Of a stretch of DNA of 10,411 nt, positions 1-10,383 are shown piece by piece. Each line of letters begins with the position of its first letter. Positions within the stretch are counted from its first letter, which is position 1. The stretch lies in the IMG/VR virus record IMGVR_UViG_2703718789_000003, positions 1-10,411 of that record. One strand, 5' to 3'. The position numbers were made by a program, and so were the translations under genes. The notes under the pieces were generated by a model that worked only from the letters and a program-made list of their open reading frames with translations, had not been told where the DNA came from and searched no databases. This DNA is from a virus. Taxonomy: Duplodnaviria > Heunggongvirae > Uroviricota > Caudoviricetes.

Positions 1-275
1 TCAGAACGCTCGGTTGCCGCCGGGCGTTTTTTATTGGTGAGTCCATCAAGCGCATACTTAAAAGCCCTGCTAATCGGACTGATGTCTGATGCCATTCCGA
101 AAGCACACAAGACCGAAGCAATAAATCTCCAGTCCGTTCTGCTTATCTTCGATTCATGACAGCCAATCATCTTTGCCAGACCGCGCTGGGTAAGCGTTGA
201 CAGGTTGATAAGTAAATCTGTTTCTGCGCGATCAACGTCGCGCTGTGATAGTTTGCTGTAACTTGTTTGTTCCAT
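1..275 (-). CDS. cII: CII-like transcriptional activator, partial (C-terminal end lies beyond window start)
   Basis: Minus-strand translation from ATG (revcomp of 273-275) gives MEQTSYSKLSQRDVDRAETDLLINLSTLTQRGLAKMIGCHESKISRTDWRF...LTNKKRPAATERSE; the C-terminal stretch TNKKRPAATERSE matches lambda CII as I recall it; open to the window edge, which is why it is absent from the ORF track. Confidence 0.7.
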   Translation of the reverse strand, partial: MEQTSYSKLSQRDVDRAETDLLINLSTLTQRGLAKMIGCHESKISRTDWRFIASVLCAFGMASDISPISRAFKYALDGLTNKKRPAATERS

Positions 276-286
276 TTCTTACTATT
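253..286 (+). promoter_or_regulatory. Candidate CII-dependent pRE-like promoter (TTGC-N6-TTGT with TACTAT -10), reading toward cro antisense and cI
   Basis: TTGC at 253-256, six nt, TTGT at 263-266, overlapping the first codons of the cII-like gene on the other strand; -10-like TACTAT at 280-285; same position and geometry as lambda pRE. Confidence 0.25.
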
Positions 287-394
287 TCCATAGGTAAATA
301 ATTTGGTTTTTTATTGTGCACCATTGACAGTCATCCATGACCACGCCGGGCACCCGACCGTATACCGGGCCGTTCGGTATAAAAATTTGCTTTA

Positions 395-625
395 TTAAGC
401 TGCTTTGTTCGGATTGGGGAACAAAGCGGATAAATCAGGGCGAATCAGGTATGCAGGGACGCTTCCATTGGTAGCCATTTCAATGCGCTTGGCATTTTCA
501 GCGGATACCCTTTTCTTCCCATGCAACCAAGCCCATACAGACGGCTGCTTAACACCGCAGGCATCAGCTAACTTTTGCTGACTTCCTACTGAGTCAATAG
601 CCGCTTTAATAGCCTTGTTGACCAT
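395..625 (-). CDS. Cro-like small HTH regulator (Cro/YdaS family), 76 aa
   Basis: ORF track 395..667(-); I prefer the internal start MVNKAIKAAIDSVGSQQKLADACGVKQPSVWAWL... at 625 because an AGGAG Shine-Dalgarno lies 9 nt upstream on the minus strand (revcomp of 635-639); HTH-like core QQKLADACGVKQPSVWAW; diverges from cI across an operator region. Confidence 0.7.
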   Translation of the reverse strand: MVNKAIKAAIDSVGSQQKLADACGVKQPSVWAWLHGKKRVSAENAKRIEMATNGSVPAYLIRPDLSALFPNPNKAA

Positions 626-656
626 AAAAATAACTCCTGCTGAATTCACAATTAGG

Positions 657-685
657 ATAATAGCCAAAGCTATTCAGAAAGTAAA
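657..685 (-). promoter_or_regulatory. PR-like sigma70 promoter for the cro-like gene (TTTACT -17- TATTAT on minus strand)
   Basis: Minus-strand -35 TTTACT (revcomp of 680-685) and -10 TATTAT (revcomp of 657-662), 17-nt spacer; overlapped by operators at 659-674 and 684-699. Confidence 0.45.
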
Positions 686-723
686 TAGCTTTAGGTATTT
701 GACTAATAATAGCTGTAGCTATA
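659..723. promoter_or_regulatory. OR-like tripartite operator array: AATAGCcaaaGCTATT (659-674), AATAGCtttaGGTATT (684-699), AATAGCtgtaGCTATA (708-723)
   Basis: Three 16-bp inverted repeats with 6-4-6 geometry, centre-to-centre about 25 and 24 bp, lying between the divergent cro-like and cI-like genes and overlapping the candidate promoters. Confidence 0.6.
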
Positions 724-725
724 GG
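699..725 (+). promoter_or_regulatory. PRM-like promoter for cI (TTGACT -15- TATAGG), possibly giving a leaderless or near-leaderless cI mRNA
   Basis: TTGACT at 699-704 and TATAGG at 720-725, 8-13 nt before the cI ATG at 734, with no good SD; third operator overlaps the -10 and second operator abuts the -35. Confidence 0.3.
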
Positions 726-733
726 TTGTACGA

Positions 734-1465
734 ATGAAACTAGATACTTTTTCTCAAAGGCTTACATACGCGATGGATCAGGCTGGGTTTACTCAGGCTT
801 CTCTTGGCAATGCTGTTGGCATGTCTCAGCCAAGCGTCTGGAAACTTACGTCTGGAAAAACACGCAATACGCGCAAACTTTTTGAAATATCAAAAGTGCT
901 TGGAGTTCGTACGGAATGGCTTTCCGATGGAACTGGGCCAATGCGTGATGAGGGAGTTGAACCTTATAATCCAAAATCTTCTATTCCCCATGAAAGCACG
1001 TGGGGATATTTGGACCCATGGGATGGAGGAACGCCTTTAAGAGGTGATGAAGTTGAAATTCCTTACCTTAAAGATATTGAGTTTGCATGCGGGGATGGTC
1101 GGGTGATTGATGAAGATCACAACGGCTTTATGTTGCGCTTCTCCAAATCAACCCTTCGCAGAGTTGGCGCGAACAGTGATGGAAGCGGGGTTGTTTGTTT
1201 TCCGGCTCGTGGCAACAGCATGGAGCCAAACATTCCTGATGGAACAACAGTTGCTGTTAACACCAACGATAAGAAAATAGTTGACGGAAAGATTTACGCC
1301 ATTAACGAGAACGGCTGGAAACGCATTAAGATTCTCTTTCGGTCAGGGCCTGACAAGGTAAGCATTAGAAGCTTTAACTCACTGGAATACCCACAAGAAG
1401 AAAAGAATCTAAGCGATATCGAGATCATCGGAAGAATCTTCTGGTGGTCTGTAGTTGACTACTAA
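734..1465 (+). CDS. CI-like prophage repressor: N-terminal XRE-type HTH plus C-terminal S24 (LexA/UmuD-like) autopeptidase domain
   Basis: 243-aa ORF; HTH-like region QRLTYAMDQAGFTQASLGNAVGMSQPSVWKL; C-terminal GNSMEP (catalytic Ser motif) and downstream Lys (GWKRIKIL) typical of S24 peptidases; divergent from the cro-like gene across the operators. Confidence 0.85.
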   Translation: MKLDTFSQRLTYAMDQAGFTQASLGNAVGMSQPSVWKLTSGKTRNTRKLFEISKVLGVRTEWLSDGTGPMRDEGVEPYNPKSSIPHESTWGYLDPWDGGTPLRGDEVEIPYLKDIEFACGDGRVIDEDHNGFMLRFSKSTLRRVGANSDGSGVVCFPARGNSMEPNIPDGTTVAVNTNDKKIVDGKIYAINENGWKRIKILFRSGPDKVSIRSFNSLEYPQEEKNLSDIEIIGRIFWWSVVDY

Positions 1466-1482
1466 CCTCATCACACCACAAC

Positions 1483-1507
1483 AAACCCGCTTTTTGCGGG
1501 TTTTTTA
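1483..1507 (+). terminator. Rho-independent terminator after cI (stem AAACCCGC/GCGGGTTT, loop TTTTT, then T-run)
   Basis: Perfect 8-bp inverted repeat at 1483-1503 followed by TTTTTT; A-rich upstream so it could act in both directions. Confidence 0.65.
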
Positions 1508-1604
1508 TTGCCCAAAAAACACCAAATCTCACATACAAGAAAAATAAATTACATTAGATATCAATGACTAAATAACCAAAGGAGTTATTTTATAACTATA
1601 GCTA

Positions 1605-1633
1605 TTTACAGCAATAATAGCTTTGGATATAGT
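1605..1633 (+). promoter_or_regulatory. pL-like sigma70 promoter (TTTACA -17- TATAGT) overlapped by an OL-type operator AATAGCtttgGATATA (1616-1631)
   Basis: Near-consensus -35 and -10 hexamers with 17-nt spacer; operator half-site identical to the OR operators; a second degenerate site (ATAGCTAT core, 1597-1604) overlaps the -35. Confidence 0.45.
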
Positions 1634-1729
1634 TAAGCCATGTCGAACGGCGCGACATTAAACCATGCGTCGGGAGCGCGGCGGGTTCAGGATGAACGGC
1701 AATGCTGCTCACTACAAAAGAACATTTCC

Positions 1730-1762
1730 ATAACTTGATAGTTATTAAAGTGTTTTTATATA
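1730..1762 (+). promoter_or_regulatory. Second promoter-like element (TTGATA -16- TATATA) overlapped by a perfect 16-bp palindrome ATAACTtgatAGTTAT (1730-1745) of different sequence from the cI operators
   Basis: Hexamers at 1735-1740 and 1757-1762; palindrome has the same 6-4-6 geometry as the operators but different half-sites. Confidence 0.25.
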
Positions 1763-1840
1763 CGGGGTTAGCGATCTCGTGACACAAACCATTTACGCGG
1801 CAGGCTACCGGAAATCAAAACAATTGACGGCGAGGTAATT

Positions 1841-2203
1841 ATGGGTCAGGAAGAAAAATATGAGCTTAAAAAGCTCATTGAAGAAGACGCCATAGAAGAA
1901 ATTGCAGCATTAACAACAGCTATAAAGAATATTAGGTATGCGCTAAATACGCTTATCTCCTCATGCGACAAAAATAGCAGGGAATTTTTGATACTTGGCG
2001 CAGCTCTAGGAATAGTTGATGCGGCAACGCTTCACCTAATTACTCATGACGATATTCTTATTGAGCCGTATGAAACATTACTGCTTGTCAGGCAAAAAAT
2101 GGCTGATGCCGCAGCAAATGGAGACCTTCAACTTTACATCGACTTAAGGAAAGTATTAAGGCGAATGGTCAGAACTGAAGGAGATATCACCCTGACAAAA
2201 TAA
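1841..2203 (+). CDS. Hypothetical protein, 120 aa, first gene downstream of pL (N position) but with no arginine-rich motif
   Basis: ORF with GAGGT SD 6 nt upstream of ATG; acidic helical N-terminus MGQEEKYELKKLIEEDAIEE; AT-rich by eye; no family recognised. Confidence 0.5.
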   Translation: MGQEEKYELKKLIEEDAIEEIAALTTAIKNIRYALNTLISSCDKNSREFLILGAALGIVDAATLHLITHDDILIEPYETLLLVRQKMADAAANGDLQLYIDLRKVLRRMVRTEGDITLTK

Positions 2204-2383
2204 GGGGGTGAGAGGATTTTACTATTTTTCTCGCTGTAGGGGTACACGAGAACCACCGAGCCTGATGTGGTTAAAAGACAGGCACAATCTTTACTACCGC
2301 AAGCCACGCAGTGAAATGGGTGTAACTTGTGTTGGTCGCCAGAAAATGAAATTAGGCAGCAAACCACTTATTTGAGGTGAGAT

Positions 2384-2959: not shown

Positions 2960-2982
2960 CCCTCCAGTGTGAGGGACTTTTT
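2960..2982 (+). terminator. Intrinsic terminator-like hairpin (CCCTC/GAGGG, 6-nt loop) followed by TTTTT
   Basis: Stem 2960-2964 with 2971-2975, T-run 2978-2982; lies upstream of cIII like a tL-type terminator. Confidence 0.4.
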
Positions 2983-2995
2983 ATATGCATACCAA

Positions 2996-3019
2996 TAACG
3001 CTTCACTCGAGGCGTTTTT
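2996..3019 (+). terminator. Second weaker terminator-like hairpin (AACGC...GCGTT) followed by TTTTT
   Basis: 5-bp stem 2997-3001 with 3012-3016, 10-nt loop, T-run 3015-3019. Confidence 0.3.
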
Positions 3020-3045
3020 CGTTATGTATAAATAAGGAGCACACC

Positions 3046-3186
3046 ATGCAATATGCCATTGCAGGGTGGCCTGTTGCTGGCTGCCCTTCCGAATCTTTAC
3101 TTGAGCGAATCACCCGTAAATTACGTGACGGATGGAAACGCCTTATCGACATACTTAATCAGCCAGGAGTTCCAAAAAATGGATAA
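3046..3186 (+). CDS. cIII: CIII (FtsH/HflB inhibitor that stabilises CII), 46 aa
   Basis: MQYAIAGWPVAGCPSESLLERITRKLRDGWKRLIDILNQPGVPKNG is nearly identical to lambda CIII as I recall it, but ends 8 residues earlier; AAGGAG SD 6 nt upstream of ATG 3046; the ORF-track entry 2944..3186 is an upstream in-frame extension. Confidence 0.85.
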   Translation: MQYAIAGWPVAGCPSESLLERITRKLRDGWKRLIDILNQPGVPKNG

Positions 3187-3292: not shown

Positions 3293-3477
3293 TTCCGGTA
3301 GAACTGGCGAAAACCCCAGAGTTAAGTCGATTAAAAAGAGAGTATCACATTGCTGAGGCTCGTTACTGGCGTAAAGCGGGAGATAAATCAAAGAAACAAC
3401 TTTGCTTATGGCAGGCACAAAGAGAGCGCATGAATGAGCGCGAATTTCTTTCCTCCCCATCCGAATTACCATTCTGA
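3289..3477 (+). CDS. Hypothetical small basic protein, 62 aa
   Basis: GGAGG SD at 3279-3283, ATG 3289 overlapping the kil stop (ATGA coupling); MIPVELAKTPELSRLKREYHIAEARYWRK...; no family recognised. Confidence 0.45.
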   Translation: MIPVELAKTPELSRLKREYHIAEARYWRKAGDKSKKQLCLWQAQRERMNEREFLSSPSELPF

Positions 3478-3485
3478 GGTGAATT

Positions 3486-4142
3486 ATGGGTACTGCGACA
3501 TTAATACTCGGTGAGTCTGGCACCGGAAAATCAACCAGTTTAAGAAACTTACCACCAGAAAAAACATTAATCATACAGTGCATAAACAAACCGCTACCAT
3601 TCCCATCAAGTGATTGGGTTAAAATAAGCAAGGAAAACAATAACGGGAACATATACAGAACAGATAATACTGAAAATATTGTAAGGGCACTAATTAATGC
3701 TCCGCATGAAATTGTAGTTATTGATGATTATCAGGCTGTGATGGTTAACGAACTAATGGGTAAATGCAATGAGAGAGGATATGACAAATTTACCTCGATA
3801 GGGAAAAACGCATGGGATGTGTTCAGGGCTGCTGGTGAAGGTGCAGACACTCGGAGAGTTTATATTCTGGCACACACGCAAACTGATGATTTTGGCTATA
3901 CACGAATGAAAACCGTCGGAAAACTAGTCGATTCGACACTTGTTCCTGAAGGTTATTTCACTATCGTGTTAAGAACTCACGTACAGAACGGAAAATACTC
4001 ATTTTCCACCCAGACAAACGGGAGTGATTGTTGTAAAAGTCCGGTTGGGATGTTTGATAGTCAGTTTATTGATAATGATTTGTACGAAGTAGATAAAAAA
4101 ATATGCTCTTACTATGGGTTTGAAAAAAATGAGACGTCTTGA
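3486..4142 (+). CDS. P-loop ATPase, Sak4-like / AAA_24-type (RecA-core-only recombination ATPase of phages)
   Basis: Walker A GESGTGKST at residues 9-17, Walker B-like hhhhDD (EIVVIDD) about 65 residues later, conserved-looking YILAHTQ segment; lies where lambda has exo/bet/gam; GAGGTGA SD. Confidence 0.6.
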   Translation: MGTATLILGESGTGKSTSLRNLPPEKTLIIQCINKPLPFPSSDWVKISKENNNGNIYRTDNTENIVRALINAPHEIVVIDDYQAVMVNELMGKCNERGYDKFTSIGKNAWDVFRAAGEGADTRRVYILAHTQTDDFGYTRMKTVGKLVDSTLVPEGYFTIVLRTHVQNGKYSFSTQTNGSDCCKSPVGMFDSQFIDNDLYEVDKKICSYYGFEKNETS

Positions 4143-8279: not shown

Positions 8280-8283
8280 CAAT

Positions 8284-8309
8284 CCTCGCACTCGCGGGGA
8301 TTTCTTTTA
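8284..8309 (+). terminator. Terminator-like GC hairpin (CCTCGC/GCGGGG with one G-U pair) plus U-rich tract
   Basis: Stem 8284-8289 with 8294-8299, followed by ATTTCTTTT. Confidence 0.35.
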
Positions 8310-8313
8310 TCTG

Positions 8314-8338
8314 AACTCGCTACGGCGAGTTTTGTTTT
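8314..8338 (+). terminator. Rho-independent terminator (AACTCGC/GCGAGTT, loop TACG, TTTGTTTT)
   Basis: 7-bp stem 8314-8320 with 8325-8331 and T-rich tail; marks the end of the coupled early operon. Confidence 0.55.
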
Positions 8339-8350
8339 ATGGAGATGATT

Positions 8351-8650
8351 ATGGCCTGTTCAACATTCAACCCTCTAACGTTACAGAAATACCAGCCAGA
8401 CCCTGAAGATTTATGCTCACTGTGTGGCGGAAATCATGGCAAAGCCGCCATGATCGAATGTAAAGACAAAATCCACATTTGCCTTAATTGCGTTGATGTC
8501 CTCGTTGATATCAAAAATGAGAGAGAAGATAAAAAGCGTAGCGAGGCTGTTCGCGCCTTAGATTCATGGATGCGAGATGGGTATAGTGCCGCGCAAATTT
8601 ATGACTTAGCAATATCAAAAGGCGAAATACCAGGAGTGCGCATCGAATAA
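8351..8650 (+). CDS. Small Zn-ribbon-like protein (CxxC...CxxC), 99 aa
   Basis: Inside ORF-track entry 8339..8650; ATG 8351 preferred (GGAG 7 nt upstream); Cys pairs CSLCGG and CLNC; bracketed by terminators on both sides. Confidence 0.5.
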   Translation: MACSTFNPLTLQKYQPDPEDLCSLCGGNHGKAAMIECKDKIHICLNCVDVLVDIKNEREDKKRSEAVRALDSWMRDGYSAAQIYDLAISKGEIPGVRIE

Positions 8651-8690
8651 GACGTAACCAATATTCGAATTGAAGAACTGAAAGAACACC

Positions 8691-8716
8691 AAGCCGCCTG
8701 ATGGCGGTTTTTTCTT
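8691..8716 (+). terminator. Rho-independent terminator (GCCGCC/GGCGGT, loop TGAT, T-run)
   Basis: Stem 8693-8698 with 8703-8708, followed by TTTTTT. Confidence 0.5.
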
Positions 8717-9020: not shown

Positions 9021-9072
9021 TTCTTGTCCATAAGAGTATAACCTGAGCGTGCTCTTGGACGCAGGAGGAACA

Positions 9073-10383
9073 ATGGCGAATTCAGCCTATCCAGCCGGCG
9101 TTGAAAATCACGGAGGAAAACTCCGAATAACGTTTAAGTACAGGGGTAAACGAGTGCGCGAAAATCTTCGCGTGCCCGATACACCGAAAAACAGAAAGAT
9201 CGCTGGTGAGTTAAGGGCTTCGGTCTGCTTTGCAATCAGAACAGGAACGTTTGATTATGCCGATCGATTCCCTGACTCACCTAACCTGAAGCTATTTGGC
9301 CTGGTAAAAAAAGATATCACCGTCGGTGAACTGGCACAGAAATGGCTTACTCTGAAAGCAATGGAAATCGGTAGTAACGCCTTAAATCGTTATCAATCAG
9401 TGATGAAAAATATGCTACCGAGGCTTGGTCCTGGCAGGCTGGCGTCATCGATTACAAAAGAAGATCTGCTGTTTATCAGGAAAGATTTACTGACCGGGGA
9501 AAAGGGAAGCAGGAAAACCAGCACGTCCCGAAAAGGAAGAACCGTACCCACAGTGAACTATTACATGACAACAACAGCCGGAATGTTCAGCTTTGCCGCC
9601 GAAAACGGGTATCTGGAGAAAAACCCGTTTAATTCAATAACACCGCTGAGGAAATCAAAACCAGTGCCGGATCCACTGACCAGAGATGAGTTTAGCCGTC
9701 TCATTGATGCCTGCCATCATCAACAGACCAAAAACCTCTGGACAGTGGCTGTTTTTACAGGGATGCGACACGGTGAAATTGCCGCACTTGCATGGGAGGA
9801 TATCGACCTGAAAGCTGGCACGATAACAGTGCGACGAAATTTTACAAAAATAGGTGATTTTACGCTACCAAAGACCGACGCAGGCACTAACCGGGTTATA
9901 CATCTTCTGGCACCAGCAATTGAAGCACTTAAAAACCAGGCGATGCTTACTCGTCTTAGCAGGCAGCATCAGATCACTGTTCAATTACGCGAGTACGGAA
10001 GAACAATTTTGCACGAGTGCACTTTTGTTTTCTGTCCGCAAATCGTTCGCAAGAATCACAAGGCGGGTATTAACTACGCGGTAAGCTCCATCGGAGCGAC
10101 ATGGGATTCAGCAATAAAAAGAGCGGGTATCCGATCCCGTAAAGCGTATCAGTCACGCCATACCTATGCGTGCTGGGCTTTATCTTCCGGAGCAAACCCG
10201 ACATTTATTGCATCACAGATGGGGCACTCCAGCGCCAGCATGGTCTACAATGTTTATGGTGCATGGATGCCTGAGTGCAGCGTGACTCAAGTTGCCATGT
10301 TGAATAATGTCCTTAATGCCCGTGCCCCAGACGTGCCCCAAAGTGACCAGGAGGATGAAATAAAATTATATTTTTCAAAATGA
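9073..10383 (+). CDS. int: Tyrosine site-specific integrase (phage integrase family)
   Basis: AGGAGG SD 4 nt before ATG 9073 (ORF track begins at upstream in-frame ATG 9049); N-terminal arm-binding-like GGKLRITFKYRGKRVRENL; C-terminal catalytic-domain motifs including HxxRHT-like SRHTYACWAL and terminal Tyr region MVYNVYGAWMP. Confidence 0.9.
   Translation: MANSAYPAGVENHGGKLRITFKYRGKRVRENLRVPDTPKNRKIAGELRASVCFAIRTGTFDYADRFPDSPNLKLFGLVKKDITVGELAQKWLTLKAMEIGSNALNRYQSVMKNMLPRLGPGRLASSITKEDLLFIRKDLLTGEKGSRKTSTSRKGRTVPTVNYYMTTTAGMFSFAAENGYLEKNPFNSITPLRKSKPVPDPLTRDEFSRLIDACHHQQTKNLWTVAVFTGMRHGEIAALAWEDIDLKAGTITVRRNFTKIGDFTLPKTDAGTNRVIHLLAPAIEALKNQAMLTRLSRQHQITVQLREYGRTILHECTFVFCPQIVRKNHKAGINYAVSSIGATWDSAIKRAGIRSRKAYQSRHTYACWALSSGANPTFIASQMGHSSASMVYNVYGAWMPECSVTQVAMLNNVLNARAPDVPQSDQEDEIKLYFSK

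Follow-up and report, generated by a model that had tools for sequence, protein, structure and literature searches.

The DNA analyzed here, a stretch of 10,411 nucleotides referred to below as the window, belongs to a lambdoid prophage, of which it holds the immunity region and the early-left operon in full, with its + strand corresponding to the leftward direction of lambda (Table 1). The closest relatives of the pL operon are Lederbergvirus (P22-like) phages, e.g., HK620, APC_JM3.2, and UPF_BP1, and the immunity region is of a type common to phage APC_JM3.2 and Wanchaivirus PDP110P2, not to HK022. Its repressor operators follow the motif TAATAGCNNNNGCTATTA, which, when up to three mismatches are allowed, occurs at five sites in the window (0.49 expected), three of them at OR and two at OL. 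Downstream of pL, the + strand carries a homologue of hkaQ from phage HK620, followed in this order by a gene of unknown function, the cIII thermosensor, kil, a gene for a Sak4-like annealing protein, an HNH endonuclease gene, SSB, abc2, several genes of unknown function, xis, and int. The lambda cIII thermoregulator is the only Rfam 15 family that scores above its gathering threshold anywhere in the window.

Table 1. Features of the window, from its first to its last position; promoters, terminator-like sites, and RNA elements are predictions
Feature	Position	Strand	Evidence or remark
oop/t0-type terminator	3-30 (window 1-40)		Overlap with the 3' part of cII, which runs on the other strand
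cII, 5' part	ATG at 275	-	
putR, second put copy	313-382	-	Covariance model, 61.8 bits; pattern match at 323-376
cro-like gene	395-625	-	
OR, three repressor operator sites	658-724		Motif scan
pR hexamers	685-657	-	Promoter scan, predicted; -10 ends at 657, putR begins at 382
CI-like repressor gene	734-1465		243 aa
Terminator after the CI-like repressor gene	1483-1503		
OL, two repressor operator sites	1590-1607, 1615-1632	+	Overlap pL
pL promoter	1605-1633	+	-35 TTTACA (1605-1610), 17-nt spacer, -10 TATAGT (1628-1633)
putL antiterminator RNA (very probable)	1640-1712	+	HK022 homology; HK022 nt n = window 1638+n
putL 5' duplex	1641-1645 with 1653-1657	+	HK022 3-7/15-19; A1640-U1658 as possible sixth pair
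putL stem I proper	1648-1652 with 1668-1672	+	HK022 10-14/30-34; pseudoknotted with the 5' duplex
Stem I linker	1659-1667	+	Holds AACCAT (1661-1666) and U28 (1666)
putL stem II	1674-1689 with 1693-1710	+	HK022 36-51/55-72; U68 (1706) bulged; tip GTTCA-GGA-TGAAC
AT-rich hairpin into U-tract	1718-1762 (hairpin 1718-1757)	+	-12 kcal/mol, z = -4.2
31-nt joint	1758-1788	+	No match in related loci compared
N-gene fragment, HK620 type	1789-1838	+	Last 15 codons and stop
First pL gene, hkaQ homologue (HK620)	1841-2203	+	120 aa, unknown function; phrog_7374, E = 2.7e-78
Second N-gene fragment, different allele	2292-2375	+	3' end, last ~27 codons
Terminator-like sites before cIII	2960-3026 (stems 2960-2975, 2997-3016, each followed by a T-run)	+	Consensus matches
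Lambda cIII thermoregulator RNA	3033-3091	+	Rfam Lambda_thermo RF01804, 88.5 bits, full-length
Terminator-like sites before xis/int	8281-8302, 8313-8332, 8691-8710	+	Consensus matches
int	9049-10383	+	

The promoter pL is the best-scoring promoter-like site in the window (10 of 12 in a sigma-70 consensus scan), and its hexamers align with the annotated -35 and -10 elements of HK022 pL. Judging from promoter spacing, transcription is predicted to start at A1640, 7 nt past the -10 hexamer, in agreement with an earlier note on this DNA that had placed the start near 1640; since the first ATG that opens a real gene lies at 1841, the leader also has the length of about 200 nt given there. The beginning of this leader is indeed GC-rich amid AT-rich DNA, with a GC content of 0.603 at 1640-1712, compared with 0.267 at 1505-1639, 0.316 at 1713-1788, and 0.442 over the whole window. 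Two inverted repeats had been read from the GC-rich segment, namely, ATGTCG (1640-1645)/CGACAT (1653-1658) with a gap of 7 nt and GTTCA (1685-1689)/TGAAC (1693-1697) around GGA, and both are present exactly as claimed.

On their own, these two short repeats do not exceed what chance would give: perfect hairpin repeats with loops of 3 to 8 nt number 37 (6 bp) and 106 (5 bp) in the window. RNA folding, which had been proposed as a check, adds nothing in their favor, as shuffled sequences reach minimum free energies at least as favorable as that of 1636-1716 (z = +0.72); the same was seen for the second copy, putR (z = +0.57), and the known structure described below was not recovered from the single sequences. 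This failure is expected of a fold that contains a pseudoknot and five noncanonical pairs, so that single-sequence folding is uninformative here, and folding energy provides no independent thermodynamic support for the put fold. One might therefore hold that the repeats arose by chance in a GC-rich patch or, alternatively, that they are DNA palindromes bound by a protein. However, the segment shows strong homology to a characterized RNA, its family displays covariation that preserves pairing, and a second copy occupies the equivalent place in the pR operon, while the repressor operators follow a different, AT-rich motif, an 18-bp palindrome of the form TAATAGC-N4-GCTATTA that is distinct from the putL repeats. 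We consider both variants of this explanation to be next to impossible. The significance of the element thus derives from homology and covariation and not from the repeats.

Homology identifies the segment as putL. In a blastn comparison with phage genomes, window positions 1634-1714 are 92.8% identical over 83 nt to HK022, HK75, and O276, where the corresponding feature bears the annotation "putL: antiterminator RNA" or "putL site" (O276 carries "putL antiterminator RNA"). Matches of 84 to 99% also extend to phiEt88, to HK639 ("putL-like antiterminator RNA"), and to several Salmonella and Enterobacter phages. Position by position, 67 of 74 nucleotides equal those of HK022, and the seven that differ are nt 1, 2, 3, 5, 17, 19, and 74. 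Among these, A3-U19 and A5-U17 of HK022 are both U-A in the window, i.e., four of the seven changed bases make up two compensatory pair swaps, which leaves the 5' duplex intact. In HK022, put is inactivated by mutations in the 3-7 duplex and at A9, U28, G35, G45, A64, and the bulged U68 (PMC9378689); all six of these single residues are the same in the window (1647, 1666, 1673, 1683, 1702, and 1706, respectively). Similarly, the putL-specific -10-like motif NANNAT at +23 to +28 (PMC9378689) is found unchanged as AACCAT at 1661-1666. The element begins at about 1640, with the predicted promoter ending 6 nt upstream of it at 1633, and the spacing between the -10 hexamer and the core is 1 nt shorter than in HK022, so that the transcript would begin at HK022 position 2 and carry the 5' duplex at its very 5' end. 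We therefore conclude that 1640-1712 very probably encodes a putL RNA of the HK022 "polymerase utilization" family, with antitermination activity that we infer from this membership. The element is of a known kind, essentially HK022 putL itself, and an ordinary member of its family. A search of Rfam 15, another check suggested in the earlier note, matched no family at putL or putR and returned nothing with an E value of up to 1 over 1640-1712 or 313-382.

The cryo-electron microscopy (cryo-EM) structure of HK022 put features a 5' duplex of nt 3-7/15-19 and a stem II tip of nt 47-51/55-59 (PMC9378689). Noncanonical pairs are A9-G35 at the junction and G42-U65, G43-A64, and C44-A63 in stem II, with U68 unpaired (PMC9378689). 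Superimposed on this structure, the first inverted repeat of the window is the 5' duplex, whereas the second corresponds to the tip of stem II, a stem that is identical to that of HK022 over its full length. All 23 pairs tested can form in the window, with the register of pairs 40-67 and 41-66 deduced from the pair counts and the unpaired U68 of the published work (PMC9378689).

To place the window in its family, we retrieved 119 viral contigs with a pattern of the invariant core, which yielded 49 distinct put sequences, 32 of the putL type and 17 of the putR type. Among 29 representatives aligned with MAFFT, 91.8% of the cryo-EM structure is paired, the pseudoknotted duplex included, and 10 of the 23 pairs have changes in both partners. 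From this alignment, we built a covariance model, which found 148 copies in 100 sources, 52 of the copies being distinct. Across these 52 sequences, 92.6% of cells pair, compared with 24 to 51% when the partners are slid by one to three columns, although such cell counts overstate the number of independent events because many family members are closely related. Changes on both sides affect 12 of the 23 pairs, and the covariation score is 0.335, against 0.02 to 0.08 for the slid partners; none of 500 shuffles reached it. By helix, three of the five pairs of the 5' duplex covary, stem I proper is paired in 100% of cells (with pair 14-30 alternating between G-C, C-G, and A-U), and stem II has changes on both sides in 8 of its 13 pairs. 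The structure used for scoring was taken from one member of the family, and both the MAFFT and the model-based alignment shift the upper stem II of putR by one column in many rows, which lowers pairing for four pairs and renders the counts conservative. Since the model and the alignments contain the window's own sequences, the scores obtained with them, such as the 99.9 bits of putL at 1638-1713, are high partly by construction. The structure is thus conserved with covariation in related phages, a point on which the earlier note had made its proposal depend.

The survey extended over viral contigs and the genomes of E. coli. When genome contigs were scanned with a relaxed pattern, GAACGGCNCG...GTCGG...GGAWGA, there were, among the matches listed, only chance hits in GC-rich genomes. 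A divergent copy of the putL type, at 9304-9379 (- strand) of locus L027, reaches 58 bits and had escaped the fixed pattern; its whole stem II is rewritten and yet paired (CCCCAU...AUGCGGG; AGCC...GGUU). Another observation was a third hairpin that follows putLs of the HK639 type and of the "CACAAGCG" type in many loci (e.g., at 1573-1632 of L003), with stems that vary and a loop that keeps UUUNCGAG, as in GCTTTTACGAGAGC and CTCTTTGCGAGGGG.

The predicted start of transcription coincides with an ATG, which opens a frame of about 31 codons (MSNGATLNHASGARRVQDERQCCSLQKNISIT) running to about 1735 and also listed as an open reading frame (ORF) in the sister contig L018, so that the segment could, in principle, encode a small leaderless protein. 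Yet there is no ATG at this place in HK022 (ATAGACG) or in the HK639 type (CAGTCG), the substitutions within the family are paired as in RNA helices and not placed by codon, and putR has the RNA core without the frame. We rejected this ORF, as it is not conserved in relatives, and consider a coding role of the segment next to impossible.

A second put copy, putR, lies on the opposite strand. It follows the cro-like gene after 13 nt, and the predicted start of pR transcription is about 268 nt upstream of it; in HK022, putR is located about 270 nt from pR (PMC9378689). The invariant-core pattern matches the window at two sites, 1644-1703 (+) and 323-376 (-), and at none in 200 shuffles, and the covariance model likewise finds exactly two copies in the window, putL and putR.

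Besides an HK022 put-like element, the earlier note had offered a divergent nut site as the second option, i.e., a boxA and boxB that would recruit an N-like protein and Nus factors. Several features of the locus invite such a reading: the element sits where nutL lies in lambda-like phages, the original HK022 GenBank record (X16093) marks a "put. nutL equivalent" just downstream of the matching segment, and the operon contains two N-gene fragments. However, the leader has no boxA-like sequence (CGCTCTTTA-like), in line with the earlier note, and the three one-mismatch matches elsewhere in the window are at chance level; as also noted there, boxB is absent. Furthermore, the segment is homologous to put and not to the annotated nutL of HK620, to which homology begins only at 1789. 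No N-like protein, dependence of read-through on which the earlier note had counted against its proposal, is encoded between pL and int, as judged from PHROG, Pfam, and tblastn searches. In particular, none of the 20 main ORFs, 18 of which lie between pL and int on the + strand and which include the cro- and cI-like genes, belongs to an N or Nun family in PHROG or Pfam, and HK022 Nun finds nothing better than E = 0.4 in the window by tblastn, so the nun gene downstream of putL is absent. The first pL gene, the hkaQ homologue, has no match to Pfam N_peptide, which HK620 N matches at 1e-15, and is not an N protein. In RefSeq, this hkaQ homologue (also at L126 2162-2524) goes by "antitermination N domain protein" in E. 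coli MBT-5, while strain 01_3327 has it as "hypothetical protein"; given the lack of a Pfam N_peptide or NCBIfam match, the former name looks like an annotation error.

With N of HK620, Nun of HK022, and N of lambda as queries, tblastn finds in the window only two C-terminal fragments of N, which are without the N-terminal RNA-binding part. The first, at 1789-1838, is 98% identical at the DNA level to the N/hkaQ junction of HK620, HK629, and HK630 (blastn), and its product IYAAGYRKSKQLTAR, encoded at 1791-1838, equals HK620 N at 15 of 15 residues. The second, at 2292-2375, shows 59% identity over 27 amino acids to the C terminus of lambda N and 97 to 99% DNA identity to the annotated 3' ends of N in Dewey, Sf101, and 933W-like phages. 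Taken together, a nut site is highly improbable, and of the two options in the earlier note it is the put-like element that stands.

C-terminal N fragments similarly trail putL in many other loci. Locus L113 combines an HK639-type putL (at 2714) with a full-length lambda-N-like ORF (3438-3758, +) about 650 nt downstream on the same strand, which is 71% identical over 107 amino acids to lambda N; put and N may thus coexist in one operon. Nun, in turn, is matched (E ≤ 1e-4) in 10 of 114 putL-bearing loci, in one of them weakly (30% identity), and is not a defining feature of put.

The earlier note had treated the long leader as the candidate element. This holds for its first ~73 nt, while the remainder is made up of a hairpin, an unmatched joint of 31 nt, and an N-gene fragment. 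The hairpin just past putL (1718-1762) is possibly a weak terminator or a pause hairpin. Phage UPF_BP1 and related contigs have this hairpin, too, with one C-G pair replaced by U-A in a compensatory manner, and other put phages have different hairpins at the position of 1718-1757. Homology to UPF_BP1 and the related contigs stops at 1757. The sister contig L018 is 98.5% identical to window positions 9-1757 and 97.7% identical to 1789-2305, and these two blocks are separated by 628 nt in L018 but by 31 nt in the window. These 628 nt hold an HNH endonuclease gene (L018 1046-1579, -) and a longer N fragment, and the HNH gene ends exactly where the truncated N gene begins. With putL, hairpin, joint, and N fragment directly adjoining, the leader is a recombination patchwork.

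In 14 of the 114 putL-bearing loci (L018, L006, L007, L013, L019, L023, L026, L032, L036, L054, L062, L064, L079, and L095), the start of an HNH gene is found no more than 400 nt downstream of putL. It is tempting to speculate that putL may spread as a cassette together with an HNH homing endonuclease, overwriting nutL and the 5' part of N, but we regard this as rather doubtful. If it were true, the window would be an HNH-less derivative with a scar consisting of the hairpin, the 31-nt joint, and the last 15 codons of N, and homing would let protein-free antitermination displace an N system.

The patchwork also raises the question of whether the element is still in use. The exact junction of the window is present in only 2 of 5,426 complete E. 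coli genomes, putL being found in 38 of them, and relative to L018, a deletion has removed 628 nt right after the hairpin. As the prophage may be defective, put could be intact and nevertheless unused in a decaying mosaic. Yet every functionally tested residue is conserved and putR is intact, too, as are, within the window, the promoter, the operators, and the open frames of cI, cro, cII, cIII, xis, and int; moreover, an identical 76-mer occurs in several independent viral contigs, all of which makes disuse an improbable explanation, if less so than a nut site. A working putL remains our preferred reading, with support from homology, the covarying structure, the essential residues, the promoter and operator context, the presence of putR, the lack of N and Nun, and the terminator-like sites downstream.

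In the following, transcription start, folding in vivo, polymerase binding, and read-through are carried over by analogy from the work on HK022 (PMC9378689). Transcription from pL would begin at about 1640, and the first ~73 nt of the nascent RNA would fold into a V-shaped, two-stem structure consisting of the 5' duplex pseudoknotted with stem I and of stem II. This RNA would bind the β' zinc-binding domain and the β flap tip of its own polymerase at the RNA exit channel and stay bound, traveling along with the enzyme. Once in place, it would keep the polymerase nonswiveled and resistant to pausing and would impede the formation of terminator hairpins. The polymerase could then read past the terminators of the ~8.7-kb pL operon, with cIII, kil, the recombination genes, xis, and int, in the absence of any N-like protein, and putR would do likewise for the pR transcript. 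In HK022, put-modified polymerase ignores terminators up to at least 10 kb downstream (PMC9378689). Likely targets in the window are the candidate terminators at 2960-3016 and 8281-8710, and perhaps also the hairpin at 1718-1762; the sites at 2960-3026 occupy the slot of the annotated tL2A/tL2B before cIII in HK620.

The biological value of the locus is small, as it represents another instance of the HK022 put system. Possibly useful by-products are a diverse alignment, the covariation of the 5' duplex, and the finding that an HNH gene repeatedly follows putL. The 52 distinct sequences support the cryo-EM 5' duplex by natural covariation and could seed an Rfam family. In the RefSeq E. coli genomes, no annotated feature underlies putL in any of the eight matches listed, and putL is also unannotated in phages such as APC_JM3.2. 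With put unannotated and no family in Rfam 15, such operons may look as if they had no antitermination, or their neighbors may be mislabeled. From sequence comparison, put would seem to act as a module that depends neither on nun nor on the immunity type of HK022.

Compared with known systems, the element serves the same purpose as lambda nutL/N, a terminator-resistant polymerase at pL, and does so from the same genomic slot. Antitermination in lambda needs the N protein, boxA/boxB, and the Nus factors of the host (PMC9378689), whereas the window has no boxA, boxB, or N beyond the two gene fragments. By resisting swiveling, put RNA suppresses backtrack and hairpin pauses as RfaH does (PMC9378689); in the case of RfaH, however, a DNA element (ops) recruits a protein, whereas put is the nascent RNA itself. 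The putL-like RNA of HK639 (GenBank HM208537; referenced in PMC9378689) has the same core, CGAACGGCGCG...GTCGG...GGCGGG...CAAT, and the same helices. Its lower stem II is wholly different in sequence and still paired (ACCAUA/UAUGGU), and its annotation spans 126 nt including a third hairpin, in place of which the window has a different one. The closest counterpart is HK022 putL (also in HK75 and O276), the mechanism of which has been described at near-atomic resolution (PMC9378689). With it, the window shares the two-stem fold, the essential residues, the -10-like motif, the place after pL, and the partner putR. It differs from HK022 putL in the two compensatory swaps of the 5' duplex and the possible sixth pair A1640-U1658. 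The surroundings differ as well: the immunity of the window is another one (243-aa repressor, other operators), as in APC_JM3.2, and in place of nun, putL is followed by the hairpin, an N fragment, and the hkaQ homologue. The putR of the window differs from that of HK022 in its flanks and in one loop base (GGTCATGGATGAC versus GGTCAAGGATGAC). Like HK022 putR, it is without the long stem I linker and the AACCAT of putL, and it is otherwise nearly identical to the annotated HK022 element, with cro and cII on its two sides and pR about 270 nt away, as in HK022.
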